Below are positions 37,834 to 54,793 of a stretch of 64,000 nucleotides of DNA, piece after piece. Numbering within the stretch: the stretch's first letter is position 1; each line of letters begins with the position of its first letter. The stretch is from Savitreella phatthalungensis (Eukaryota): contig AP039691.1 in the NCBI GenBank assembly GCA_051599415.1, forward strand, positions 62,001 through 126,000. Direction: 5' to 3'. Both the position numbers and the translations under genes were made by a program. Under the pieces are notes generated by a model. That model made no database searches. It had not been told where the DNA came from and saw only the letters and a list, made by a program, of their open reading frames with translations.

Positions 37834-40598
37834 GCTCTATCTATTAAAGGCAGAATTGTGCCTGTAAACGACGCAGGCCAAATGTCGGCTCTCGGCACGA
37901 AGCGTCTCGGGAACAATATTGCTCGCTTATTCTAGCAGGACGGAGCTGTCCCGTCATTATCCTGTGGGTCCTCTATTACTTTCTCCACCTGTTCACTGAG
38001 ACAGGCTAAGCGATCCGCCTTGAGGAATTCAAACGCGTCGCGTCTTTCGTTTTCATCGTTGCGTTACCTCGACACGACAAAAATGACAAAAATTTGGACG
38101 CTCAATGATGCTGTCCAACTCCGCCGGACTTCACGTGTGGCCATGAAGGGCAGTTTCGACGACGACTGCCGTCATCACCGCAGCACGCCAAAAAAGGAGC
38201 TTCTGACGCATTGTCAGCCCTGGATCCATCGTTCGCGCTTCCTCATCCGTGCCGGGCCGACGGGTTGACGTCTGTTGACCTGTCAACCTGCTGTCAGTGC
38301 TGCATCGACCACTAGATTGGCTTCTCCTGTGTCAGAGAAGAGCCAACACTGCATCGAGATTCTCTCTTTCCCGAATTCACGACCATAGAGCGGACTGTAA
38401 CTGGACGCAGCCAAAGCACCTTTCCGAAATGTCGGTAAGATTGAAATTTTGATTGGACCTCTCTCATTCAGATTCTGACCTCGACGAGCTATCATTATTT
38501 GCGGGAGCCGCCTGGTGAATGTAGAATAGGATGAATTCAGTGCTGTTACTATGTATTTGACAGAATAGCACCTCAATTGCATATCAATAATCTGTTGCCG
38601 ATGTTGGAAGGATTCCGTCTTGTGATAGATAGGGCTAGAGACAGCGCCTCTTCCGCTCCCTCGTGCTGTATTTTCCACCCCGCCCAATGCCCAAATTCAG
38701 ACGACTTCACCATCCACCTCATCAACGGCACGTATGAATGAGTAAAAATGGTGTTCTGTTCTGGTAAACATCGTTCGTTATACAGTACCAGCGCTTCCCG
38801 AGAGGCCTGCCCCTCTTTTCCAAACATATGATCACTGCCTGTTTCCGGCAAACCGACCAAAGACACGTTCAGGTGCGACATTGAGCGATAAGCAGTCAAT
38901 CGGATTAAGATCATGACAGGCAGTCGATTTAGTACATCACTTGATGGATCTATTCAATTATTCCCGTGTTCCATATGACCCTCGAAATCGAAACTGCACA
39001 GGAGATCTAAACAATTCATGGGTTCATGGTGCGCACTATGTAGAACTATCCATACACAAACCTCCATAGTTGATCTTGATCTCAGCGACTCTAAATTCGT
39101 GTAGATCCACCACAATGAAACACGACAGCTGAAACATTTGCAACTATTATGCACCATCACGCCTTGTTTTCCCTTGCAATCATTCGTCACCGAAATAGAC
39201 ATGAGATCGCCATCAGCAGTCGACAGGTGTCAGACAATCCCCTTCAGTGGCGGTGAGCGGCAACGGCACATTCCAAAAGATCCGCTGGACATCATCTCAG
39301 GGGACGGATACACGGCAAGTTGGCAAGATCCGTGTATGCTGTGACAGTAATCACATCAGATCACATCACATCACATCCAAGAAACGCACCACAACATCTG
39401 GCAGTGCGCTCAGCGAGATTCTTCCTTTTAGAGCTATCGATGGGATGCTGGAGCCGCAGCTGCAAGAACGACGTCAGTGCCGGTTGCACGAGTCAAAGTT
39501 AAGAGAAGCTCTCTCAAGCGTGAAAATGTGGTGCCCCAACTTGAAGGTTCGATTCTTCCACGTATTGCCTTCTATTCTCATCTCTACACTCCATCGCTAA
39601 AGCAAGCCTGATATGTTTTTCCAGCCCATGGCAATCAGGAAAGGGTGGAAAGTCACAATCCAGCCTGACTTTCGAATAAATATCTGAATACTGCAGCAAA
39701 ATTTGTTATTCTATGCACGGTAATGCGGGAAAACTGACGGCTTTCCCAATGCAGTAAGGGCTTCTCAAGAGGTCTATGTGCCCGTGGAATCAGAGGTCGG
39801 TCACAGCTTATGTCTTCTTATACCTCTTGAAGCTAAAGAAGGTGGGTATGCACTCAGAAAATCACCAGCCGTGTTTCTATCATCATCTCTAGCTCCAGCT
39901 TGACCCGACCGTGTGTTCGTCCCAATCGAGAAGGACGTCGCCGAAGCGGATGTCTCAGGAAGGTTCCTCTGCCCGTGGAGCCGACTGACTGGTGGCAGGT
40001 ACTGATTTTGAAGACACACTGTTTTACGACTCCGCCCATGCTGGTCCTACACTCTGTTCTGACACTTGCGTCCGAAACCTTCTGAACCATGACATTGACC
40101 AATCGTGCTTACGATTTAGCGACCTTCGTCACTGATCCAGGGCTGTGATCGCAAGGCCGTCGCGGCAACGTGCGCGCTTTACCGTTCCCCTCACTTGCAG
40201 ACGTGACGCTCGTAGCTAGGCTGTGCATCAACCTGGACCCCCCAGAATTTGTCCCTACCTGCTACGTTCAGTCGTCCTGCATACGCCCGCGGCCTATTTT
40301 CGCGGTTCCACAGGATTAAGGACGCGTGCTTTTGCTACCTTTGCACATCGATCACTTCCGCACTTCTCCTCACCCGATCGGTCAGGGCGTGCCTGACAGC
40401 CTACACTTGCGATGACGCCTGCCGTGCAGCTTGGAAGCTGCGGGAATCCGTCACGAATGCGGTCTCCGTGGGCGATCCACTGAAGATGATCTAACGAAGT
40501 GGAGATGTCTGTCATCAGGCACTTCACAAGCCTGCTGCGAATGGTCCGAATGGTTCGGTAGACGAGCTGGTGGGATGTCTTCGTGAAGACAACAATGC

Positions 40599-40605
40599 TA
40601 TAAGA
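40599..40605 (+). promoter_or_regulatory. TATA-like element upstream of the APAFS-repeat gene
   Basis: TATAAGA about 70 nt before ATG 40673; one mismatch to the TATA consensus. Confidence 0.4.
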
Positions 40606-40672
40606 GGACGATGTCCCTCCATGATGTAGACTCCATCCTCATCGGTCGCTCGCCCTTACATCCATATTCATC

Positions 40673-43600
40673 ATGATCGCCGGAGCCATCATTGCCGGCG
40701 CTTTCCTTGGCGCGGCTGAGGCTCTCAACGTTCCTCAGTTCCTTCGTCGTCAGGATGTTAGCATCAGCCAGCGCACCGTCCACGCCACCGTTCCGGCCAT
40801 CACCATTGAGCCGAAGACTATTGACGCCACGGTGCCTGTGCCCGTTGTCAACAGCCCAACCAGCACGCCGACCGTCGTTGTCACTGTCGGTGTGCCACGT
40901 ACTATCGAGGGCCCGACCATTACCGTGCCAAACATTGTGATTCCCTCACAGGCACCAGAAGGTCCACACTACACAATCACACTCAACGACCCTCCGTCGC
41001 TTTCGCCACCGTCATTCACAGCCCCGAGCTTCAGTGTACCTCAGCCACCGGCTTTCAGCGCTCCCTCCTTCAGCGTGCCTGCCTTCCAGGTTCCGTCTTT
41101 CTCGGCTCCTACATTCCAGGCTCCGACCTTCGCCTTGCCCAGCGCGCCCGCACAGCCCTCCGGCGGAAACGGCTCACCACAGCCAGCTCCCTCCGCACCT
41201 GCCTTCAACGTGCCATCTCTTGCCATCCCCTCGCTCCCTGCCTTCTCTGCACCGGCCTTCTCTGCACCGGCCTTCTCTGCACCGGCCTTCTCTGCACCGG
41301 CCTTCTCTGCACCGGCCTTCTCTGCACCGGCCTTCTCTGCACCGGCATTCTCTGCACCGGCATTCAGCGCACCAGCTGCACCATCGCTGCCAGCCTTCCC
41401 TTCGCTGAGCGCACCAGCCTTCAGCGCCCCGGCCTTCTCTGCACCGGCCTTCTCTGCACCGAGCTTCGCTGCACCATCGCTCCCAGCTTTCAGCGCACCC
41501 AGCCTGCCGTCGCTCGCTGCGCCCTCGCTGCCTGCCTTCTCTGCACCAAGCTTCGCTGCACCCTCGCTGCCGGCCTTCCCATCGTTCAGCGCCCCGGCCT
41601 TCTCTGCACCAGCCTTCAGCGCACCTGCTGCACCCTCGCTTCCTGCCTTCTCGGCACCAAGCTTCGCTGCACCTTCGCTTCCTGCCTTCTCGGCACCTAG
41701 CTTCGCTGCACCTTCGCTGCCTGCCTTCCCGTCGTTCAGCGCCCCGGCCTTCTCCGCACCAGCATTCAGCGCACCGGCCTTCAGCGCACCAGCTGCACCA
41801 TCGCTTCCTGCCTTCTCTGCACCAAGCTTCGCTGCACCTTCGCTGCCTGCCCTCCCGTCGTTCAGCGCCCCGGCCTTCTCTGCACCAGCATTCAGCGCAC
41901 CGGCCTTCAGCGCACCAGCTGCACCATCGCTTCCTGCCTTCTCTGCACCAAGCTTCGCTGCACCTTCGCTGCCTGCCTTCCCGTCGTTCAGCGCCCCGGC
42001 CTTCTCTGCACCAGCATTCAGCGCACCGGCCTTCAGCGCACCAGCTGTCCCATCACTTCCTGCCTTCTCGGCACCAAGCTTCGCTGCACCTTCGCTTCCT
42101 GCCTTCTCGGCACCAAGCTTCGCTGCTCCTTCGCTGCCTGCCTTCCCATCGTTCAGCGCCCCGGCCTTCTCCGCACCAGCATTCAGCGCACCGGCCTTCA
42201 GCGCACCAGCTGCACCATCGCTTCCGGCCTTCTCGGCGCCTAGCTTTGCTGCACCTTCGCTGCCTGCCTTCCCATCGTTCAGCGCCCCGGCCTTCTCCGC
42301 ACCAGCATTCAGCGCACCGGCCTTCAGCGCACCAGCTGCACCATCGCTTCCTGCCTTCTCTGCACCTAGCTTTGCTGCACCTTCGCTGCCTGCGTTCCCA
42401 TCGCTGAGCATCCCGGCCTTCCCATCGCGCAGTGCCCCGGCCTTCAGTGCACCAGCTGCACCATCGCTTCCTGCCTTCTCTGCACCTAGCTTTGCTGCAC
42501 CTTCGCTGCCTGCCTTCCCATCGTTCAGCGCTCCGGCCTTCTCTGCACCAGCATTCAGCGCACCTGCTGCACCCTCGCTGCCTGCCTTTTCGGCGCCTAG
42601 CTTTGCTGCTCCATCGCTTCCTGCCTTCTCGGCACCAAGCTTCGCTGCTCCTTCGCTGCCTGCCTTCCCATCGTTCAGTGCTCCGGCCTTCTCTGCACCA
42701 GCATTCAGCGCACCTGCTGCACCCTCGCTGCCTGCCTTTTCGGCGCCTAGCTTTGCTGCTCCTTCGCTGCCTGCCTTCCCGTCGTTCAGCGCCCCGGCTT
42801 TCCCATCCTTCAGCGCCCCGGCTTTCTCTGCACCCGCATTCAGCGCACCAGCTGCACCATCGCTTCCTGCCTTCTCCGCACCAAGCTTCGCTGCACCTTC
42901 GCTGCCTGCGTTCCCATCTTTCAGTGCTCCTGCTTTCCCATCGCTGAGCGCTCCGGCCTTCCCATCGCGCAGTGCACCGGCCTTCAGCGCACCAGCTGCA
43001 CCATCGCTTCCTGCCTTCTCTGCACCTAGCTTTGCTGCACCATCGCTTCCTGCCTTCTCGGCACCAAGCTTCGCTGCACCATCGCTTCCTGCCTTCTCGG
43101 CACCAAGCTTCGCTGCTCCTTCGCTGCCTGCCTTCCCGTCCTTCAGCGCTCCGGCCTTCCCGTCCTTCAGCGCTCCGGCCTTCTCTGCGCCAGCTGCACC
43201 TTCGCTGCCAGCCTTCTCTGCACCTAGCTTCGCTGCACCTTCGCTTCCTGCGTTCTCTGCACCAAGCTTTGCTGCTCCTTCGCTGCCTGCGTTCCCATCG
43301 CGCAGTGCACCGGCCTTCAGCGCACCAGCTGCACCATCGCTGCCAGCCTTCCCTTCGCTGAGCATTCCGGCCTTCAGCGCTCCTGCCTTCTCAGCACCGA
43401 GCTTCGCTGCTCCTTCGCTGCCGGCCTTCCCGTCGTTCAGCGCGCCGGCCTTCCCATCCTTCAGCGCTCCGGCCTTCTCGGCACCAGCTGCACCTTCGCT
43501 TCCTGCATTCTCTGCACCTAGCTTCGCTGCACCTTCGCTGCCTGCGTTCCCATCCTTCAGCGCTCCGGCCTTCCCGTCGTTCAGCGCCCCGGCCTTCCCG

Positions 43601-44521
43601 TCGTTCAGCGCGCCGGCCTTCCCATCCTTCAGCGCTCCGGCCTTCTCGGCACCAGCTGCACCTTCGCTTCCTGCATTCTCTGCACCTAGCTTCGCTGCAC
43701 CTTCGCTGCCTGCGTTCCCATCGCTGAGTGCCCCAGCCTTCTCGGCTCCTACTCTCCCGAGCCTGTCCCTCCCGAGCCCACCGAAGCAGTCGTCTGCTAC
43801 CACGACCTCGAGCTTCGTACTCCCAACGCTTTCGCTCCCGAGCTTGTCTCTTCCTTCCCTGGCTGCTCCGTCGTTCAGCGCCCCGGCCTTCCCGTCGTTC
43901 AGCGCTCCCGCCGCTCCATCGTTCAGCGCTCCCGCCGCTCCATCGTTCAGCGCTCCCGCGTTCCCATCGCTCAGCGCTCCGGCGTTCCCGTCCTTCAGCG
44001 CTCCGGCGTTCCCGTCCTTCAGCGCTCCTGCCTTCCCGTCCTTCAGCGCTCCTGCCTTCCCGTCGCTCAGCGCTCCTGCGTTCCCATCGTTCAGCGCTCC
44101 CGCTGCGCCATCATTCGCAGCCCCGTCCGCACCAGCCTTCTCTGCACCATCGTTCGCGGCCCCCTCGCTGCCGGCTTTCCCGTCGATCTCGGCTCCTGGA
44201 GCACCCTCGCTATCATTGCCGTCTCTGGCCCTGCCAACCTTGAGCCTGCCCAAGCCAGCTTCGACGACAGCGAAGCCAGTCACCTCCAAGACCACTACCT
44301 CAAGCAGCGTCGAACCCACAACCACCTCGTCGGCTGTGCGCTCGACCATGACGACTGTTACTCGCACCAACAGCGCTGCCGCATCGTTCGCCTCCGAGCT
44401 CTCCTCGTTCCTGGCATCGATCTCGACTTTGCGCCCTCACGCAACCTCGGCGACGCTCGGTGGCACACAGACCATCACGTTGGCACTGCCCCAGATCACA
44501 GTCCCTGCCATCGGCTTCTAA
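40673..44521 (+). CDS. Secreted Ala/Pro/Ser/Phe tandem-repeat protein (APAFS-type repeats), 1282 aa
   Basis: Signal peptide [17 protein letters not shown], a dibasic RR-Q site, a roughly 950-aa repeat core and a Ser/Thr-rich tail. Repeat copies differ mostly at synonymous positions, which supports this frame as coding. Confidence 0.88.
41240..41344 (+). repeat. Seven perfect 15-bp units (GCCTTCTCTGCACCG) at the head of a coding minisatellite extending to about 44190
   Basis: Read directly; followed by variants and higher-order units. Confidence 0.95.
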
Positions 44522-47500
44522 GGCGAAGGCTATGCACAGGCTGGATTCCCTCTTACTCCCGCTAGTCGTACCCATCGATGAAGGGATTCATGATGAGCAA
44601 CGTCACAACGATAGAAACTTGCTCTTTCACCTTTGTAAATACTTCAGCTTAGCGACAGTTCTGTAGTCTTTCTCAAGATTCCCTTTCGAACATATTTGGA
44701 ATTCCTGAAGCAGTTGAGTATCATTGTCGAGTCCCTGAGGTGTGCTTTCTGCCTCAAAGCAAGCACCGATGACTGGTCTTATAGGAATGAACCATCATCG
44801 AAGCATCCAGACGGCATGTAGGATGAGCAGGTCGACATACATGCACCTGCACGATTGAGCTATTCGGTAATGAACACCTTGCGGAGCGGAGTTCTCGCTT
44901 CAGAATCAAGATCAAGACGCGGCACAATACTGGACATTCTATCATCGACATGTGACAGGGATTGAGATCACTTAGACTATCTACACGCTCTACAACGGGA
45001 CGACTTGAAGAAGACGCAGAAACGTTTGTCTCAAGCGAAGGAATTCTACGTGTGGCATGCGATTCAAGCAAGGGGGGCCAAGATAACGATAGTCGTAGGA
45101 AAGACAAACGCCAGTAGTATGGGCAAGTGAATCAGATGTGCAGCATGCCAGGACATACCGTTACCAATTAGCGGGCCGCAAGCAAGGTCGCAAGCGTGAT
45201 GCTATGCATTGCCAGGTTTGGGTGGTTGAGAAGTCGGGCGCGGGGATAGATGGTTCACTCAGCCATAGTGGTCACTGACTGAAACAGTACGTGACCAAAG
45301 ATGGCATTCGATGCACGTGCAATTTGTATGCTCCGTCTCAGCATAGCCAAGTCTCAACATTCCGGACATACGCGGATATCGCTTGTCAAGAAAGACCAGA
45401 CATCACAGTCACGTCCTCCAGGTCGCTCGCTGGATGCAGTACGGGGACGAATTGCAAATGAACAATATATGAGATATCATTATGATCAGAAATTCTCAAA
45501 TCTTCATATCCAGAGTTCTCGGCGTCGTGGCAAAGTACTCATACAAACCAGTACTCTGGATCGCGTAAGATGAAAGCTGAATTGACACTGGATTAATCGG
45601 GCACCTAACCATCTCAAACCTCCTCGCACACGTGTCAATTCAGATATCAGACCAAAATTCAGATGCGAATTACCCCGGTACGGCGGTCGACGAGGAGCAT
45701 CTCAAATTTATCCAATTTGAACAGAATCTCTTAAGCGCGGAATATAAGGGTCATACATATTCATGAACCAGAGTACTGGTATATGTAAAACGCAGTTGTG
45801 TCTCTGAACCCCGCCCTTTGAGCGGTTTGAATGTAAGAAGATGAGTCGGGCCAGCTGGCTCTCAATTCTATCTTGTGTGCGCACGCAAAGCGATATTCAT
45901 GACTGTAGCTGACCGAAGCTGCGAAATTCCAAACGATCCAGCCGATCTCTTACAAGACTTACTGGACTGTAACTGGGAGATGAGTCAAGCATGAGCTTGT
46001 ATATGAATGCTTTGAGTTGGCTGGCGTCGCCGGACAGGTGGACTCGTGGCCGAGAGACTTTGTGATCTACCTATCGAGCGCGATTATCTAGCTGATCGAT
46101 CTCCCGTGAATCAGCACTACTAGCTGTTTGGCTTTCGATGCATCGATTCTGCTTTCTCCTCGTACTGTCTGAGATACACGCATGACCGGGAGAATCACTC
46201 GCCATCTGCTAGTTCTGACTAGCTGCACAGACCTCCCTACCTAACCCTTCATTTCTTCACAAGTCACTCAACACAAACATCTTCACGCAGGTCTTACCCG
46301 ATGTTCTTCCATACTCAAAAGACGATTGTGTCTATCCCCAAGCATGCATTCCCATCCTCTACTACGATGTAGCAGCTTTCTTTCTCGCTCTCGGCTTCGC
46401 GCTCGGCTTCACACGTTGCATTCATTGAGAGAAAAGCCCGGCCACGCGACACGGATATGCAGGTTTGTGGAGGGAAAAAGCCGAAGCGTAGGCGAGAGAT
46501 GTAGCTACAGAAGGCTGGTTTGCAAAATGCCCCACAGAATCGATCGGATAGAACGCATGTCAAATACTCGTGGCAGATTTTACTAGAATCGACTGTCCAT
46601 AGTCCGTCCTGCCATGGTGCTCAGTAATGACTAGAGCCTGGAGTGGCTTGAACAATGAATTCAGAGTTGGACGGTCTCCAGACCCAACGCTCGCCTGGGT
46701 TGGCGACATGAAGGTACCATCAATCTACTCATCCGAACACGTTGTCTTGACCATAGAGTGGAGAGCCCTTTTAAAATGCTTCACGATTGGTCAATCGCCA
46801 CAGCTTATACTGCGCTTCACCTTGTCCACTTACTAGAAGCCTCTTCCGCGGAGGGGGCGGGTGGCATTGTGACCGATCACTGAAGATGGTAGATCTGTCA
46901 AGTGTATGTTCCGTTAGTCGGGAGAATCCAAGGTAACGAGGGAGAGAAAGAGTCAGGACGAAGAAGCAGGTTACACTCCGAGCAGATATGAACTCTACCG
47001 TCTACTACTCTCAGTCATTGTCTCTCGATTGACTTGAGAATTATATGATATACCGAATTAGATTCATCCTGTTCTCTCTCTTTCCCACTTTCGCTTTCTC
47101 TCTCATTCAGACATTCGCTCGATTAGGTCAAAAGGCCCAACATAAGTTTGTTCCATTCTTTCATACCTACTTCAGATTGAAATCTAAATTGAGAAGCTCA
47201 AAGCTGATTCGTCATAGACTTTCCCCAAAATTCAGTACTGACGCAAGTCATCATTCGAATCACATCTACACACGTACTTACAGACACTCACACTCACATA
47301 CTCACATCTCACCCACAGACACAAGCTAAACTCAAGCACATTCATGAACTCATCAGCCAGCTTCCCATGTAGCCAGCTATCCTCAACAGACGACAATCCA
47401 CCCATTACCCATCTCGGCATCTATCTCCATCAACAGCGCCCAGACACCTTCACAACACCTTCTAGCTCGCTACAAACCAACGAAAGCGCTGGCGCCAAAG

Positions 47501-48538
47501 AACTACATGTCTCACTCGCACACCATGACAGTACCAACCAGACCAGACTAAAGCCAAAGCTTCTATGCCCCGCTCCTTCAATCTGAACGAATGAACACGT
47601 TGGATAAAGACAACCAAGCTCATCTGAACCTTCTCTCCGATGAGCTATCGGTCGGTCGCCCAGTCTTCCCCTCCTCTGATGAACCAATCTATCACATCTA
47701 ACGGTCCGACGAAAGCTCCCCGTAGCTGACCGTGCAATGCTCAGCTACGAGTTATTCCCTCGTGCGCGCACTTTCATCTCGAGTAAGTGAGGGTAGCTTG
47801 AACCCCTCCCGTCTCAACGTCTACCGTCCTAGACATTATCCAGAGAGAGCCATAGGTCATGTCAGTCCTGCATCCTCCCCGCACCTCGCTTCCCAGGCGG
47901 CTTCCACGCGCGCGCCTTCGCGCCTCTATGCACATACACCAACAATGATACACGTTTTTGATGCTAGCTGGAGAGACGAATGCACTATCTTCTGCATCTT
48001 CGAATGTACTACCGATCTGACAGCTTCAACAGCTCGCTTGCAGATCTCGCTTCCTCGCTTGCTTCCCAGCTCAAACTGTCTGCTCACGTCAAGCTCCATA
48101 GCTGATGTCACTGTCACAGCAAGTCGGCGCGCAACGGCGGCGGCTGCAATGAGTCCTTTCTACGTCCCTCTGCCTGACAGAGCTCGACAGGTAGTCCATC
48201 CTGCAGGACAATGTGGGGAAAAAAGCCACGGCGTCCACAGGTGGACTACGACCATGCACAATTCGCTCAGCTCCACCCCTCCTCGCCCTTTGTGCTGTAG
48301 GTCCCATTGTAAGTGGTAATCTTTGCTCGCAGAGCAAACAACATCATGGACCTTCACGATGACCGGGTAGTTAAGCCGCCGACTGCCCATGTCGTCCTTC
48401 TAGACCATCGTCCACGACGACATCGACTCTGTCGATACAAGACTTGCCGACACCGTGTTGATCGACGCAGTCATCTCCATCCTCAGTTGCTCTACCTGAT
48501 CTCAGTCGCGAACAAGACCTTTCGTGAGAGAGTCCAAT

Positions 48539-51500
48539 ATGCGTTTCGCTTCTCAGGTAGCAACGCTCGCCCTGTTGGCCTCGTCCGCAGATGCCTTACC
48601 ACAATTCGGCGCGAACCCTATAGGCGCTGTGCTCTCGCCGATCCTCGGCGGCGGTCAGCCATCCACTACCACATCTAGTTCGTCGATGCTCGGCTTCACG
48701 CCATCACCGATAGCTCCCGTGGCGCCGCCGCCGAGCTCTAGCACGACCACCGCCGGCGGTGCTTCGACTATCTCATCGTCAGCTCCATCTTCCTCTGCGC
48801 CACAGCAACAGCAGCAGAGTTCCTCTTCTCCACAGCAACAGCAGCAGAGCTCCCAAGCACCAGCTCCTGCACAGGCATTCACTCCGATCCCGAACGTGGT
48901 CGTGGTCGTTACATCGTCCAACTACCTGCCACCTGCTTCGTCCAGCACCGCAACCACGAGTTCATCAGCACCACCCGCAGCTCTCATCTCATCGGTGACA
49001 AATCTGCTGAGTCCTATCATTAACATCTTCAGCAACCCCTCACTCCAGCAACCAGCTTTGCCAATCTCCAGCACCAACCCACTCGCCGCCGGTGCATCGC
49101 AGATCCAGGCCGGCGTCGCCTCTGGCGCATCTCAGCTGCAGGCAGGTGCACCATCTGGCAACCCCCTCGCAGCAGCCGCATCACAGGTACAGGCAGGTGC
49201 TGCCTCCGTCGCTAGCCAAGTCGAAGCTGGAGCACCGTCTGGCAACCCGCTGGCCGCAGGAGCATCACAGGTACAGGCTGGTATCGCATCGGCCGCCAGC
49301 CAGGTCCAGGCCGGTGCACCATCGGGCAACCCTCTGGCCGCAGGAGCATCACAGGTACAGGCTGCCGTTGAGTCTGGCGCTTCACAGCTTCAGGCAGGTG
49401 CACCGTCAGGCAATCCGCTGGCAGCTGCCGCATCACAGGTTCAGGCCGGTGTCGCCTCCGTCGCTAGCCAGGTCGAAGCCGGCGCACCATCGGACAACCC
49501 TCTGGCCGCAGGAGCATCACAGGTACAGGCTGGTATCGCATCGGCCGCCAGCCAGGTCCAGGCCGGAGCACCGTCTGGCAATCCACTCGCTGCGGGTGCG
49601 TCCCAGGTTCAGGCAGGTGTCGCCTCCGTCGCTAGCCAGGTCGAAGCTGGTGCACCGTCTGGCAACCCGCTGGCCGCAGGAGCATCACAGGTACAGGCTG
49701 GTATCGCATCGGCCGCCAGCCAGGTCCAGGCCGGTGCACCGTCTGGCAATCCACTCGCTGCGGGTGCGTCCCAGGTTCAGGCAGGTGTCGCCTCCGTCGC
49801 TAGCCAGGTCCAGGCCGGAGCACCGTCTGGCAATCCACTCGCTGCGGGTGCGTCCCAGGTTCAGGCAGGTGTCGCCTCCGTCGCTAGCCAGGTCGAAGCT
49901 GGAGCACCGTCTGGCGACCCTCTGGCCGCAGGAGCATCACAGGTACAGGCAGGTGTCGCCTCCGTCGCTAGCCAGGCCCAGGCCGGAGCGCCGTCTGGCA
50001 ATCCACTCGCTGCGGGTGCGTCCCAGGTTCAGGCAGGTGTCGCCTCCGTCGCTAGCCAGGTCGAAGCCGGCGCACCATCGGACAACCCTCTGGCCGCAGG
50101 CGCATCACAGGTACAGGCTGGTATCGCATCGGCCGCCAGCCAGGTGCAGGCCGGCGCCCCATCAGGCAATCCTCTAGCAGCAGCTGCGTCCCAGGTTCAG
50201 GCAGGTGTCGCCTCCGTCGCTAGCCAGGTCCAGGCCGGAGCACCGTCTGGCAATCCACTCGCTGCGGGTGCGTCCCAGGTTCAGGCAGGTGTCGCCTCCG
50301 TCGCTAGCCAGGTCGAAGCTGGAGCACCGTCTGGCAACCCTCTGGCCGCAGGAGCATCACAGGTACAGGCCGGTGTCGCCTCCGTCGCTAGCCAGGTCCA
50401 GGCCGGAGCACCGTCTGGCAATCCACTCGCTGCGGGTGCGTCCCAAGTACAGGCAGGTGTCGCCTCTGCGGCTAGCCAGGTCGAAGCCGGCGCACCATCG
50501 GGCAACCCTCTAGCAGCAGCCGCGTCACAGGTACAGGCAGGTGTCGCGTCCGCCGCCAGCCAGGTGCAGGCCGGTGCCCCATCAGGCAACCCGCTGGCCG
50601 CTGGGGCTTCCCAGCTGGAAGCTGGCATTGCATCCGCTGTGTCTCAATTTCAGGCAGCAGCGCCTTCGGACAACCCCTTGGCAGCAGGAGCCAGTCAACT
50701 CCAGGCAGGAATCGCATCAGCCGCGAGTCAGTTCCAGGCTGCTGCACCAAGTGGCAACCCCGTCGCCGAAGGTGCATCGCAACTCCAGGCTGGCGTCGCC
50801 TCGGCAATTTCGCAGTTCCAGGCAGCAGCCCCGTCTTCCGCTCCGGCGTTCCCGAACGACAACCCTCTTGCCGCGGCAGCAAGTCAATTGCAAGCTGGCG
50901 TAGCTTCTGCTGCCAGTCAGTTCCAGGCAGCAGCTCCGTCTGGCAATCCTCTGGCTGCGGGAGCATCTCAGATCCAGGCTGCCGTTGAGTCCGGAGCATC
51001 ACAGCTGCAGGCAGCAGCACCATCGGGCAACCCGCTTGCTGCGGGTGCTTCGCAGGTCGAGGCAGGCGTCGCGTCTGCTGCCAGCCAGGTGCAAGCCGGA
51101 GCCCCATCAGGCAATCCTCTAGCAGCAGCTGCGTCTCAGGTTCAGGCCGGTGTCGCATCCGCGGTCAGTCAAGTTGAAGCCGGTGCGCCTTCAGGCAACC
51201 CACTCGCTGCAGGTGCTTCGCAGGTTCAAGCAGGTGTCGCCTCCGCGGTCAGCCAAGTTGAAGCCGGCGCACCATCAGGCAATCCACTCGCAGCCGCCGC
51301 ATCACAGGTTCAGGCCGGTGCCGCCTCCGTGGCTAGTCAGGTCCAGGCTGGTGCACCATCTAGCAACCCACTCGCTGCTGGTGCTTCGCAGGTCGAGGCA
51401 GGTGTCGCCTCTGCTGCTAGCCAGATCCAGGCAGCCGCACCCAGCGGTAATCCTCTTGCCCAGGCACTAGCATCTGCGGCCTCGCAGCTACAAGCCGGCG

Positions 51501-54500
51501 CGTCGTCAAATCCGCTTGCGGCCGGCGCAAGTCAGTTGCAAGCTGCAATCGCTTCTGGAATCTCTCAGCTCGAGGCCGTTGCAACACCAAGCAGCAATCC
51601 TATCGCCGATGGTGCCAGCCAGCTCCAGGCAGGACTGGCTTCTGGTCAACCCTCCGGAAATCCTCTGATGGCGGTAGCATCGCAGATTCAGGGAAACGTG
51701 CTATCAGTCGCCTCGCAGCTACAAGCAGCCGCTCCCAGTGGGAACCCACTCGCGTCGGTTGCTTCTCAGATTCAGGCTGGTGTCGCTTCTGGCGTCTCGC
51801 AGCTTGAGGCCGCTGCCCCATCTGGCAATCCCCTGGCATCCGCTGCATCTCAGGTACAAGCTGCTGTCGCCTCTGGCGCGTCTCAGCTCGAAGCTGGTCT
51901 GCCTAGCGGCAACCCAGTGGCTAGCATCGTCTCTCAGGTCCAAGCAGGTCTCCCATCCGGCAATCCTGTCGCTAGCATCGTGTCGCAGATCCAGGCAGGC
52001 CTGCCATCGGGCAACCCGGTCGCTAGCATCGTATCTCAGGTCGAAGCAGGTCTGCCATCGGGCAACCCGGTCGCTAGCATCGTCTCTCAGGTCCAAGCAG
52101 GTCTCCCATCGGGCAACCCGGTCGCTAGCATCGTATCTCAGGTCGAAGCAGGTCTGCCGTCTGGCAACCCAGTGGCTAGCATCGTCTCTCAGGTCCAAGC
52201 AGGTCTCCCATCGGGCAACCCGGTCGCTAGCATCGTATCTCAGGTCGAAGCAGGTCTGCCGTCTGGCAACCCAGTGGCTAGCATCGTCTCTCAGGTCCAA
52301 GCAGGTCTCCCATCGGGCAACCCGGTCGCTAGCATCGTATCTCAGGTCGAAGCAGGTCTGCCGTCTGGCAACCCAGTGGCTAGCATCGTCTCTCAGGTCC
52401 AAGCAGGTCTCCCATCGGGCAACCCGGTCGCTAGCATCGTATCTCAGGTCGAAGCAGGTCTGCCATCTGGCAACCCGGTCGCTAGCATCGTATCTCAGGT
52501 CCAAGCAGGTCTGCCGTCTGGCAACCCAGTGGCTAGCATCGTCTCTCAGGTCGAAGCAGGTCTGCCGTCTGGCAATCCTGTGGCTAGCATCGTATCTCAG
52601 GTCGAAGCAGGTCTGCCATCTGGCAACCCGGTCGCTAGCATCGTCTCTCAGGTCCAAGCAGGTCTCCCATCCGGCAATCCCGTGGTCAGTGTCATCTCGC
52701 AAATTCAAGCAGCTCTTCCGAGTGGCAATCCTGTCGCGAGCATTGTCTCGCAGATCGAAGCTGGCGTACCGAGCGGCAATCCTATTGCCAGCGTTGTCTC
52801 GCAAATTCAGGCTGGCCTTCCGACTGGCAATCCCGTTGCCAGCGTCATCTCTCAGATCCAGGCTGGACTGCCGAGTGGCAATCCTGTCGCGAGCATTGTA
52901 TCTCAGGTTGAGGCTGGACTGCCAAGCGGCAACCCTATCGCCAGCGTCGTTTCCCAGATCCAGGCAGGACTTCCAAGTGGCAACCCTGTGGCCAGCATCG
53001 TCTCGCAGGTCGAGGCGGGTCTTCCGAGTGGCAACCCTGTCGCCAGCATCGTCTCTCAGATCCAGGCGGGACTTCCTACAGGTAATTCTGTGGCCAGCGT
53101 TGTTTCCCAGATCCAGGCTGGTCTTCCTAGCGGCAACCCGGTCGCCAGCGTTGTTTCCCAGATCCAGGCAGGACTTCCAAGTGGCAACCCTGTGGCCAGC
53201 ATCGTCTCGCAGATTGAGGCGGGTCTTCCGAGTGGCAATCCTGTCGCCAGTGTCATCTCTCAGATTCAAGCCGGCCTCCCAAGCGGGAACCCAGTGGCAA
53301 GCATCGTCTCCCAGATCCAGGCTGGTCTTCCTACCGGCCTGCCGTCTCCGAGCAACAACCCGATCGCTGGTGGTGTTTCTCAAATCGTTGGAGCTATCTC
53401 GAGTGCTGCTCCTGGTGGATCAGATGGTCCACTCGCTGGAGGCACGGCAAACCCGATCAACAGCATTATTAACCAGTTGCCAACTGCTCTTCCATCCGGC
53501 AATCCAATCCAGGTCGTCCTGTCATCACTCTTGCCAGCACTGACGAGCAACCCGGTCGCGTCAATCATCCAGAATTTGCCATCGGGATTGCCGTCCAATG
53601 GCTTGCCGTCCAATCCTCTTCCGATTCAGAGCATTCTCTCGCAGATCACCAACCAGCCATCCCTGCCCATCAACTTGCCTTCAGTCATTCAGAGTGTCAT
53701 CTCCCAGATCACGGCTCAACCGTCCCTGCCGATCAACCTGCCCAGTGTTGTGCAGAGCGTTGTCTCACAGATCACCTCACAGCCAACACCGACCCTGCCT
53801 GTAAATCTACCAGGCATTCTGTCAAGCGTTGTTTCGCAGATCACGGCCCAGCCTACGCCGACTTTACCAGTCAATGTTCCAAGCATCCTCTCGAGCGTGC
53901 TCTCTCAGCTTACAAACTTGCCAACCAACCTTCCGATCACACTACCGCCTGTACTCTCCAGCATTCTCACCGGATTGCCGATCACCCTGCCAATCGGCCC
54001 GCAGTCGACCAATATCGTTGGACCTTCAGGCTCGGCGACCATTCTGCCAATTGGCAGCACTGCGATCCCTTCCACCCTTCAGACCATTACAACAAGCAAC
54101 CAGCAGCAGCCGGGCTCATCGCCAACTCCGAACCCAGGAAGCGGTACATCGCCTGGCAACGGTAGCGCCGGCGGCAACACCGGCGGCAACACTGGAGGCA
54201 ACACTGGAGGCAACACTGGAGGCAACACTGGAGGCAACACTGGAGGCAACACTGGAGGCAACACTGGAGGCAACACTGGAGGCAACACGGGAGGAAACAC
54301 TGGAGGAAACACTGGAGGCAACACCGGTGGCAATGGCGTCGTGGCCCCAGGCAGCGGCATCGCGCCGGGTTCTGGCAGCGCTGGCTCGAATCCCGTGACC
54401 GGTGGCAACACTGGCAGCGGAGCATCGAGCCCGATCGGCTCAGGCTCCAACACTGGTGCAGGTGCAGTCGCTGGATCCAACTCTGGTTCCGGCTCCAGCT

Positions 54501-54793
54501 CGAGTGCTGGCTCATCGCCGGCCGCTGGTGCTGCCGGCTCTACTTCAGGCTCGACAGCTGGCTCTGGAGCGGCGTCCGGTTCGGCCGATGGTGCCGCCAT
54601 CCTCGGCACTTCCAGGACTCTCCCCGGAGATTCCTCGTCTGGCTCAAGCTCGAGCTCCGGCTCAGGCTCATCCACCGGTGGCAACGCTGCCACCTTGCCA
54701 AAGTCCAATGGAGCATCCTCCCTCGTCACACCTCAGAAGTGGTTCCTGACAGGCGTTGCGACAATCGTCGTCACCGCCCAGTTCGTCTTCTAA
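48539..54793 (+). CDS. Giant secreted, probably GPI-anchored tandem-repeat surface protein, 2084 aa
   Basis: Signal peptide MRFASQVATLALLASSADA-LPQ (first ATG 48539), 28-aa and 17-aa SGNP repeats, (GGNT)13, a Gly/Ser stalk and a GPI-like C-terminus SNGASSLVTPQKWFLTGVATIVVTAQFVF. Confidence 0.9.
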   Translation: MRFASQVATLALLASSADALPQFGANPIGAVLSPILGGGQPSTTTSSSSMLGFTPSPIAPVAPPPSSSTTTAGGASTISSSAPSSSAPQQQQQSSSSPQQQQQSSQAPAPAQAFTPIPNVVVVVTSSNYLPPASSSTATTSSSAPPAALISSVTNLLSPIINIFSNPSLQQPALPISSTNPLAAGASQIQAGVASGASQLQAGAPSGNPLAAAASQVQAGAASVASQVEAGAPSGNPLAAGASQVQAGIASAASQVQAGAPSGNPLAAGASQVQAAVESGASQLQAGAPSGNPLAAAASQVQAGVASVASQVEAGAPSDNPLAAGASQVQAGIASAASQVQAGAPSGNPLAAGASQVQAGVASVASQVEAGAPSGNPLAAGASQVQAGIASAASQVQAGAPSGNPLAAGASQVQAGVASVASQVQAGAPSGNPLAAGASQVQAGVASVASQVEAGAPSGDPLAAGASQVQAGVASVASQAQAGAPSGNPLAAGASQVQAGVASVASQVEAGAPSDNPLAAGASQVQAGIASAASQVQAGAPSGNPLAAAASQVQAGVASVASQVQAGAPSGNPLAAGASQVQAGVASVASQVEAGAPSGNPLAAGASQVQAGVASVASQVQAGAPSGNPLAAGASQVQAGVASAASQVEAGAPSGNPLAAAASQVQAGVASAASQVQAGAPSGNPLAAGASQLEAGIASAVSQFQAAAPSDNPLAAGASQLQAGIASAASQFQAAAPSGNPVAEGASQLQAGVASAISQFQAAAPSSAPAFPNDNPLAAAASQLQAGVASAASQFQAAAPSGNPLAAGASQIQAAVESGASQLQAAAPSGNPLAAGASQVEAGVASAASQVQAGAPSGNPLAAAASQVQAGVASAVSQVEAGAPSGNPLAAGASQVQAGVASAVSQVEAGAPSGNPLAAAASQVQAGAASVASQVQAGAPSSNPLAAGASQVEAGVASAASQIQAAAPSGNPLAQALASAASQLQAGASSNPLAAGASQLQAAIASGISQLEAVATPSSNPIADGASQLQAGLASGQPSGNPLMAVASQIQGNVLSVASQLQAAAPSGNPLASVASQIQAGVASGVSQLEAAAPSGNPLASAASQVQAAVASGASQLEAGLPSGNPVASIVSQVQAGLPSGNPVASIVSQIQAGLPSGNPVASIVSQVEAGLPSGNPVASIVSQVQAGLPSGNPVASIVSQVEAGLPSGNPVASIVSQVQAGLPSGNPVASIVSQVEAGLPSGNPVASIVSQVQAGLPSGNPVASIVSQVEAGLPSGNPVASIVSQVQAGLPSGNPVASIVSQVEAGLPSGNPVASIVSQVQAGLPSGNPVASIVSQVEAGLPSGNPVASIVSQVEAGLPSGNPVASIVSQVQAGLPSGNPVVSVISQIQAALPSGNPVASIVSQIEAGVPSGNPIASVVSQIQAGLPTGNPVASVISQIQAGLPSGNPVASIVSQVEAGLPSGNPIASVVSQIQAGLPSGNPVASIVSQVEAGLPSGNPVASIVSQIQAGLPTGNSVASVVSQIQAGLPSGNPVASVVSQIQAGLPSGNPVASIVSQIEAGLPSGNPVASVISQIQAGLPSGNPVASIVSQIQAGLPTGLPSPSNNPIAGGVSQIVGAISSAAPGGSDGPLAGGTANPINSIINQLPTALPSGNPIQVVLSSLLPALTSNPVASIIQNLPSGLPSNGLPSNPLPIQSILSQITNQPSLPINLPSVIQSVISQITAQPSLPINLPSVVQSVVSQITSQPTPTLPVNLPGILSSVVSQITAQPTPTLPVNVPSILSSVLSQLTNLPTNLPITLPPVLSSILTGLPITLPIGPQSTNIVGPSGSATILPIGSTAIPSTLQTITTSNQQQPGSSPTPNPGSGTSPGNGSAGGNTGGNTGGNTGGNTGGNTGGNTGGNTGGNTGGNTGGNTGGNTGGNTGGNTGGNGVVAPGSGIAPGSGSAGSNPVTGGNTGSGASSPIGSGSNTGAGAVAGSNSGSGSSSSAGSSPAAGAAGSTSGSTAGSGAASGSADGAAILGTSRTLPGDSSSGSSSSSGSGSSTGGNAATLPKSNGASSLVTPQKWFLTGVATIVVTAQFVF
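49070..51904 (+). repeat. Coding array of about 30 84-bp (28-aa) units SGNPLAAGASQVQAGVASVASQVEAGAP
   Basis: Seen in the translation and DNA; degenerates toward the 3' end. Copy number is approximate. Confidence 0.9.
51905..53332 (+). repeat. Coding array of 28 x 51-bp (17-aa) units SGNPVASIVSQV(Q/E)AGLP
   Basis: 28 units counted, spanning exactly 1428 bp. Confidence 0.95.
54170..54325 (+). repeat. 13 x 12-bp coding repeat, (GGNT)13
   Basis: GGAGGCAACACT and variants, 156 bp. Confidence 0.95.

Follow-up and report, generated by a model that had tools for sequence, protein, structure and literature searches.

The APAFS Gene and the Repeat Grammar of Its Product

The window analyzed here is a stretch of 64,000 nucleotides (nt) from Savitreella phatthalungensis (assembly GCA_051599415.1, contig AP039691.1, positions 62,001–126,000 of the forward strand), and all coordinates below are counted from its first nucleotide. 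Our subject is an open reading frame (ORF) at 40673–44521 on the plus strand, which we refer to as the APAFS gene and which encodes a long protein built almost entirely of short Pro-spaced repeats. The gene consists of one unbroken frame of 1282 codons that runs from an ATG at 40673 to a stop codon at 44519–44521, and no intron is required to read it. Upstream of the ATG the frame extends no farther than 40625, where an in-frame stop closes it. Upstream of the ATG by about 70 nt, the sequence contains a TATA-like box (CTATAAGAGG, 40600–40609, plus strand) that is a putative promoter element of the gene.

The predicted protein, all parts of which are encoded on the plus strand, begins with a signal-peptide-like N-terminus that ends in AEA (residues 1–17; 40673–40723) and that was recognized by a hydropathy heuristic. 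Residues 18–26 (40724–40750) follow and end in RR (residues 25–26), the only dibasic pair among the 1282 residues, at which cleavage of a Kex2-type propeptide is possible. A head rich in Val, Thr, Ile, and Pro by composition, the DNA of which is nonrepetitive (residues 27–110; 40751–41002), is succeeded by degenerate transition repeats made of xPxF modules (residues 111–190; 41003–41242). Repeat analysis delimited the main array (residues 191–1026; 41243–43750), in which a head of (APAFS)n precedes 16 higher-order units. The main array is separated by an interruption with LPSLSLP motifs, the sole Lys of the array, and a Ser/Thr patch (residues 1027–1064; 43751–43864) from a second array of 8-residue PSFSAPAF or PAAPSFSA units with a 24-nt period (residues 1065–1175; 43865–44197). 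The remainder comprises a compositionally Ser/Thr-rich tail (residues 1176–1233; 44198–44371), the sole helix predicted by AlphaFold2 (about residues 1234–1251; 44372–44425), and 31 C-terminal residues that are weakly hydrophobic and carry the motif ITVP (residues 1252–1282; 44426–44518). ITVP occurs twice, at residues 83–86 (40919–40930, plus strand) and at residues 1275–1278 (44495–44506, plus strand), in similar Thr/Ile/Val/Pro contexts. The whole protein contains a single N-glycosylation sequon (N166).

Ala (336), Pro (282), Ser (264), Phe (168), and Leu (80) make up 1130 of the 1282 residues, and the protein contains neither Cys nor Trp. Between residues 191 and 1175 these five amino acids account for 970 of 985 residues (98.5%), with charge confined to three Arg and one Lys. 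The main array of 836 amino acids (aa) is written in eight letters (A262, P201, S185, F134, L48, R3, I2, and V1), so that Ser constitutes 22% and Phe 16% of it; its mean Kyte–Doolittle hydropathy is +0.67, and its charge is limited to three Arg. Among its dipeptides AP occurs 130 times, whereas SP, TP, PP, FG, and GF are all absent, as is Gly. A first-pass annotation of this stretch, made from the sequence alone, had described a five-letter polymer of about 950 residues in which the arrays lack Cys and acidic residues and contain only a few Arg, and these counts agree with it: the main array (836 aa) and the second array (111 aa) are preceded by 80 degenerate residues.

The repeats follow a strict grammar. 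Across residues 111–1190 the most common Pro-delimited modules are PAFSA (68 copies), PSL (43), PAF (34), PSFSA (28), PSFAA (25), and PAA (18), and the distance from one Pro to the next in residues 191–1005 is only ever 5 (113 times) or 3 (82 times), which confirms the earlier description of 5- and 3-residue modules. Phe is likewise spaced regularly, as had been claimed, with distances of 5, 8, 3, or 11 in 129 of 130 intervals. Each of the 16 higher-order units, which are 37–84 aa long, opens with APA[AV]PSLPAF and continues with one to three copies of a 13-residue block, zero to four copies of the 8-residue PSFSAPAF, and one to three copies of APAFS; three units are 42 aa long, and two of these are exactly the 42-mer quoted in the first-pass annotation. 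At the DNA level, Tandem Repeats Finder reported nested periods of 15, 24, 39, 126, and 291 nt, including 8.4 copies of a 15-nt unit at 41240–41365 (99% matches), 3.5 copies of a 126-nt unit at 41666–42106 (96% matches), and 9.7 copies of a 24-nt unit at 43868–44100 (89% matches). The 66 PAFSA copies in residues 191–1175 are written in 25 DNA versions.

Coding Frame and Constraint on the Array

Divergence between repeat copies was assessed with 518 ungapped DNA self-alignments of the array, all of which (518 of 518) have an offset that is a multiple of 3. The alignments contain 4710 differing site pairs, of which 3730 involve codon position 3, whereas positions 1 and 2 account for 595 and 385, respectively. 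In the plus frame 4008 of the 4710 differences (85%) are synonymous versus 2846 (60%) in the antisense frame, while random single-base changes would give a neutral expectation of 28% and 26%, respectively; the site pairs are not independent, and these shares are therefore to be read as ratios and not as statistics. The Ser of the PAFSA module is coded by both TCN and AGC, two codon families without a silent one-step interconversion. The codon-usage score is 0.103 for the plus frame and 0.036 for the antisense frame, and it ranges from 0.024 to 0.087 in ten neighboring genes. The plus frame is the coding frame of the array, and the APAFS ORF is very probably a real protein-coding gene in that frame. 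As judged from the pattern of copy divergence, the array is clearly kept by protein-level selection, in line with the first-pass reading of the synonymous variation between copies.

On the minus strand the ORF listing contains an antisense ORF of 1109 codons at 41041–44370 that would encode Ala/Gly/Lys/Glu/Leu-rich repeats. It shares its wobble position with the sense frame and is restricted to the array, and it stays open simply since Tyr, His, and Gln codons do not occur in the sense array. The plus-strand ORF overruns it by 368 nt upstream and 151 nt downstream and thereby extends into nonrepeat sequence. We judge the antisense ORF to be a probable by-product of sense composition. It also constitutes a trap for gene callers.

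Sequencing runs provide independent views of the locus. Runs X1 and X2 derive from a single sample of organism A, which is possibly the source sample of the window assembly, and hold 0.76 and 0.61 of the sampled window words, respectively. Their contigs agree with both array flanks with zero differences, and inside the array they fragment into many short pieces. From X1 we obtained 60 array pieces, 59 of which match at an identity of at least 99%, with depth in all 30 bins, and several pieces are at single-copy depth (about 44–58 versus 47 in the flanks). The sequence content of the array is therefore read-backed. A contig or read that spans the array was not found among runs X1–X4, an absence without evidential weight of its own; the length of the array and the order of its units are therefore those of the assembly alone, which is a point against the reading of the protein given below.

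Organism B is a close relative represented by runs X3 and X4, which come from one sample and have a depth of about 4–6. Its contigs cover 43991–44341 and 44462–44711, and the lack of cover over 39800–41247 carries no evidential weight. The covered coding part contains four substitutions, all at third positions and all (4/4) synonymous in the plus frame, as well as one in-frame ACT insertion exactly after codon 1207; the noncoding stretch at 44760–45082 contains 13–16 differences. One 372-nt contig of organism B (X3) joins sequence like that at 42349–42400 straight to 43991, a hint, from a single low-depth contig in a repeat, that the organism B array may be shorter or its units reordered.

Two alternatives concern the existence and the strand of the gene. 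According to one, there is no gene at all, and the locus is a GC-rich minisatellite that is open in several frames by compositional chance, so that the plus-strand ORF would be an artifact of annotation. The 1109 open antisense codons, other frames that are open for up to 445 codons, and the empty homolog searches of the protein are what such a sequence might give. However, the plus-strand ORF reaches nonrepeat flanks that supply an ATG, a start resembling a signal peptide, and, farther upstream, a TATA-like box, 85% of the differences between its copies are synonymous versus 28% under neutrality, Ser is retained across two codon families, and organism B has only synonymous changes (4/4) together with an insertion of a whole codon in frame, all of which makes this explanation quite unlikely. 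That the antisense ORF (41041–44370, minus strand) is instead the real gene is extremely improbable: it is confined to the array without nonrepeat ends, its copies toggle between Lys and Asn, Glu and Asp, and Ser and Arg so that 40% of differences are nonsynonymous versus 15% in the plus frame, its Gly codon choice opposes the local preference, and one of the four changes in organism B would be nonsynonymous (Asp to Glu). In its favor are the length of 1109 open codons and a codon-usage score of 0.036, which is within the range of neighboring genes.

Relatives and Genomic Neighborhood

The protein searches scored just the 8000 candidates with the most shared words, and fungal genome collections lay outside the search for relatives; for these reasons we do not claim that the APAFS protein is unique. 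An exhaustive HMMER search with the first 125 residues gave no matches among 1.84 billion representative proteins, and none of 551 candidates passed when the first 130 residues were used in a word-indexed search of proteins of 705–2244 aa. A Pfam scan with E up to 1 returned nothing above the cut-off and only GLTT at E = 0.83, and in the ESM Atlas the best scores of the whole protein (0.82–0.84) were under the lead threshold. There was no Pfam profile match to the pentapeptide-repeat beta-helix family PF00805, and the AlphaFold2 model is without a solenoid. A PDB sequence search gave one match, a phycobilisome linker (E = 0.017), which was rejected. Also rejected as homologs were the eight matches that residues 1000–1282 obtained among the 8000 scored candidates, all of which are low-complexity look-alikes; they include deer cornifin-like and periaxin-like proteins, Mucor and Rhizopus proteins with LPSISLP, and an Apiosordaria GH18 protein with an LPSVSLP linker.

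A metagenome scan used the first 190 residues as the query, and four loci of 512 pattern matches passed tblastn. These loci (L001–L004) were rejected; in L001 and L003, the two that were compared, the low-complexity match is out of frame with the pentapeptide-repeat ORF that it overlaps. As a side observation, L001 (6722–7426), L003 (156–665), and L004 (3669–4151) are on AT-rich contigs with ORFs for pentapeptide repeats of the ADLSGANL type, and the ORF in L001 adjoins phage- or virus-like genes (an SbcCD-like pair).

Residues 100–460 gave 56 matches to shorter proteins, and the 23 that we inspected form four groups. The first three are bacterial-type secreted proteins of 142–146 aa with tails of (A/S/N)P(A/S/G)FS units, algal-type proteins with short PSFSAPS runs, and a membrane protein with a (PSFSA)n tail. 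The fourth consists of the most informative look-alikes, P0023 and P0053. Both are 213–215 aa long and combine a signal peptide with a Cys-rich part, a hydrophobic C-terminus, and a stalk that is made of array modules and spans about 65 residues. Over 66 residues this stalk and the array share 58% identity, in an alignment at residues 1043–1113 that takes in the interruption of the array; it is the P0023 stalk with which the interruption aligns. As a lead only, the Atlas places P0023 near ascomycete clusters auto-named "putative GPI anchored serine-threonine rich protein" (score 0.93, 184 shared features). To judge by these alignments, the module vocabulary of the array is found elsewhere as short linkers of apparent surface proteins, and none among the matches of the protein searches is comparable to the array in length or purity. 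We also note a family of proteins of 142–146 aa (P0015, P0024, P0025, P0027, P0050, and P0065) that have a bacterial-type signal peptide, a conserved PAPS(S/A)WTPPERIP core, and a tail of 10–15 pentapeptides of the form (A/S/N)P(A/S/G)FS; P0015 is without a Pfam family. These tails are a convergent, small-scale version of the APAFS repeat. In the full-text literature 110 papers matched the motif words, which were acronyms in all 20 of the matches listed; PSFSAP and APSFAAP were absent among these, and nothing pertinent was found on disordered, Phe-rich secreted fungal repeats.

The genes around the APAFS gene are ordinary eukaryotic housekeeping genes of fungus type, among them those for a P4-ATPase, MutL, an alpha-actinin-like protein, cyclin B, Set2, ADE2, Vps36, phosphatidylserine decarboxylase, and Ase1; judged by this neighborhood the host is a fungus-type eukaryote, in support of the earlier annotation. 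A second giant orphan repeat ORF is located 4 kilobases (kb) 3' of the APAFS gene at 48539–54793 on the plus strand and, read from the ATG at 48539, encodes a protein of about 2084 aa (P0002). This protein has a clear signal peptide, a Ser/Thr/Gln-rich head, and GNPLAAGASQVQAG-type repeats of about 28 residues, followed toward the C-terminus by 14-residue GLPSGNPVASIVSQ-type repeats, a (GGNT)n run, a Gly/Ser-rich region, and a hydrophobic tail like that of proteins with a glycosylphosphatidylinositol (GPI) anchor. No Pfam family was found for it, and because a pairwise comparison gave E = 1.5 there is no support for paralogy with the APAFS protein. The gene-free spacer between the two giant repeat genes (44600–48500, about 4 kb) is unusually long for this gene-dense window: from 44600 to about 47700 there is no ORF of more than 125 codons, and the first longer frame has 197 codons (47726–48319). 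This spacer might be a large regulatory region of the downstream gene.

A Candidate Secreted Surface Polymer

By the hydropathy heuristic the N-terminus of the APAFS protein looks like a cleavable signal peptide, consistent with the secreted protein proposed in the first-pass annotation: residues 2–15 are hydrophobic, with an 11-residue Kyte–Doolittle window of up to 2.41, and AEA occupies positions −3 to −1. The annotation had also proposed a polyproline-II or disordered backbone, and AlphaFold2 (run without an alignment) gave no fold, with a mean predicted local distance difference test (pLDDT) score of 42.2 for residues 1–330, within which residues 1–110 are at about 34–46, and 47.8 for residues 1050–1282. 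The sole helix is at positions 185–202 of the latter fragment, in a block with a pLDDT of about 75. The chain is thus predicted to be disordered, and the low pLDDT fits this as weak evidence.

We read the APAFS protein, with a probability of about 0.5, as a secreted, O-mannosylated, disordered surface or matrix polymer that makes hydrophobic contacts through its Phe residues. The chain would enter the secretory pathway by way of the 17-residue signal peptide, possibly with trimming at RR, and the product would reach the exterior of the cell as a very long chain that has neither charge nor fold. Pro at every third or fifth residue would block regular folding and amyloid formation and keep the chain extended. 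Ser, 22% of the array, would probably be O-mannosylated, as other Ser/Thr-rich regions of secreted fungal proteins are, and the mannosylated chain would be stiffer and more soluble. The roughly 150 regularly spaced Phe, together with Leu, could make many weak hydrophobic contacts with surfaces or other chains. The most likely role would be that of a surface or extracellular-matrix polymer in a coat, stalk, or adhesive layer that binds to hydrophobic surfaces or to itself by the hydrophobic effect, in the way known from the repeats of fungal adhesins. The array itself would expand and contract by slippage and unequal recombination of its nested units. We infer secretion, glycosylation, location, and an adhesive or cohesive function from features of the predicted protein and its surroundings. 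A surface context is favored by the likeness to the P0023 and P0053 stalks and by the giant neighbor with a signal peptide and GPI-like tail 4 kb downstream on the same strand. The most likely placement of the protein is within the known class of fungal secreted repeat proteins, as a hyper-expanded orphan.

Several points weigh against this reading. The putative signal peptide lacks a basic n-region and was called by eye and hydropathy. With Pro, Gln, and Thr among its residues, the C-terminal tail peaks at a Kyte–Doolittle value of 1.55, versus 2.09 for the GPI-like tail of the neighbor; the APAFS C-terminus appears to be a poor, unconvincing GPI candidate, and because no other wall-linkage motif was seen either, attachment to the wall is unsupported. 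The main array is without Thr, and its 22% Ser is below that of classical Ser/Thr-rich stalks. Cys is absent from the whole protein, as is a folded domain for ligand binding. Finally, the P0023 and P0053 likeness involves low-complexity stretches and may reflect convergence, and short xPxFS arrays are also present in unrelated bacterial and algal-type proteins.

Comparison with known systems places the protein near, and outside, several of them. According to PMC6023273, fungal adhesins are typically secreted mannoproteins of 600–2500 residues whose tandem repeats, variable in number, bind through the hydrophobic effect and give stronger adhesion the more of them there are. The APAFS protein resembles the Als/Flo/Hwp1-type adhesins of that account (PMC6023273) in size range, secretion signal, tandem repeats, and a dibasic motif. 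Unlike them, it has no folded N-terminal domain, Cys-rich region, or convincing GPI signal, and it contains only a single N-glycosylation sequon, while Thr is missing from its array. The adhesin-type features that we recognize in it are a secretion signal (by heuristic), tandem repeats, and a Ser-containing, putatively glycosylated stalk together with the Ser/Thr-rich tail. According to PMC5923269, Rsp3 of Ustilago maydis is secreted without a GPI anchor and decorates the hyphae; it carries a complex array of repeats, its length varies, and experiments show that it shields hyphae from mannose-binding maize proteins. Rsp3 has a signal peptide, as the APAFS protein putatively does, and no predicted GPI anchor, much as the APAFS C-terminus is a poor GPI candidate. 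Its length or repeat arrangement varies between isolates, for which the APAFS gene offers only the hint from one organism B contig; in contrast, Rsp3 is negatively charged with Gln/Pro-rich and Cys-rich regions (PMC5923269), whereas the APAFS protein is uncharged, Phe-rich, and Cys-free. Among the 8 and 56 matches of our searches Rsp3 is absent by name (no direct comparison with its sequence was made), and none has a counterpart of the 836-residue eight-letter run with strict 3/5 Pro spacing. P0023 and P0053 have a module vocabulary (LPSxSx-type) in common with the APAFS protein. In them these modules form a linker (about 65 residues) that joins a Cys-rich domain to a membrane or GPI end; in the APAFS protein the stretch is expanded about 15-fold and constitutes the whole protein. 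Variable surface proteins with intragenic repeats have reportedly been described in Zymoseptoria by Rudd in 2010 and in Aspergillus fumigatus by Levdansky in 2007; no member of these sets appeared among the search matches, and their sequences were not directly compared.

Other functions can be imagined for the same chain. Elastin-like peptides are defined by VPGXG and nucleoporin FG domains, which are intracellular, by FG repeats. Like the APAFS protein, both are low-complexity, disordered, Pro-rich or charge-poor sequences with spaced hydrophobic or aromatic residues, and the first-pass annotation had likened the array to them; the analogy describes possible physical behavior. Taken further, it would make the protein an extracellular sticker–spacer polymer that coacervates into a cohesive hydrogel or glue and is not a glycoprotein brush. 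A hydropathy of +0.67 with almost no charge (3 Arg in 836 residues), Phe spacing of 5, 8, 3, or 11, and the absence of a predicted fold would suit such a polymer. The defining motifs are missing, however, as the main array has no VPGXG, no Gly, and no FG; O-mannosylation of Ser, if present, would weaken cohesion; no homolog supports phase separation; and the APAFS chain has a secretion-type N-terminus and, unlike intracellular FG domains, is probably glycosylated and extracellular. We regard this polymer as unlikely. A more specific version is doubtful to a slightly greater degree, namely that a charge-free, Gly-free, Phe-studded Pro/Ala/Ser material of about 1000 residues gels or coacervates as an extracellular hydrophobic glue or sheath, distinct from elastin, resilin, silk, hydrophobins, and repellents, and that it evolved by about 15-fold expansion of the stalk motif of a small GPI-type wall protein.

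The protein might also be a mimic of plant arabinogalactan proteins (AGPs) or proline-rich wall proteins produced by a plant-associated fungus. The resemblance to AGP backbones that had been pointed out stands as far as richness in Ala, Pro, and Ser and the 130 AP dipeptides of the main array are concerned, and secretion is plausible. It does not extend to SP, TP, and PP, none of which occurs in the main array, and a Phe content of 16% is foreign to AGPs. AGP function needs plant prolyl hydroxylation and the addition of arabinogalactan to hydroxyproline, which are not expected in a fungal secretory pathway, and neither a tie of the fungus to plants in the window or the runs nor a likeness to plant proteins among the array-search matches was seen. 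Mimicry of AGPs thus appears unlikely from the sequence, and we give this explanation very little credence. Even less can be given to a polyprotein precursor from which many small hydrophobic peptides are cut, as in the Rep1 repellents of Ustilago: the product is apparently secreted and repetitive and has a dibasic site close to its N-terminus, but that site is the only one in 1282 residues, and because RR 25–26 is the sole dibasic pair there are no Kex2 sites between the repeats or anywhere inside the arrays.

Orphan repeat proteins are common in fungal genomes. The APAFS protein is extreme in its size, in its compositional purity with near-zero charge, and in its strict 3/5 Pro grammar, and its Phe content is unusual as well. 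If the gene is never expressed, its array is merely a curiosity of repeat expansion. Fungal surfaces are largely built from repeat-rich secreted glycoproteins, few of which have been studied outside the yeasts. If expressed, the APAFS protein would offer a natural system of spaced aromatic residues on a Pro-rich, glycosylated backbone that could confer adhesion, hydrophobicity, or cohesion, and protein materials could be patterned on it.

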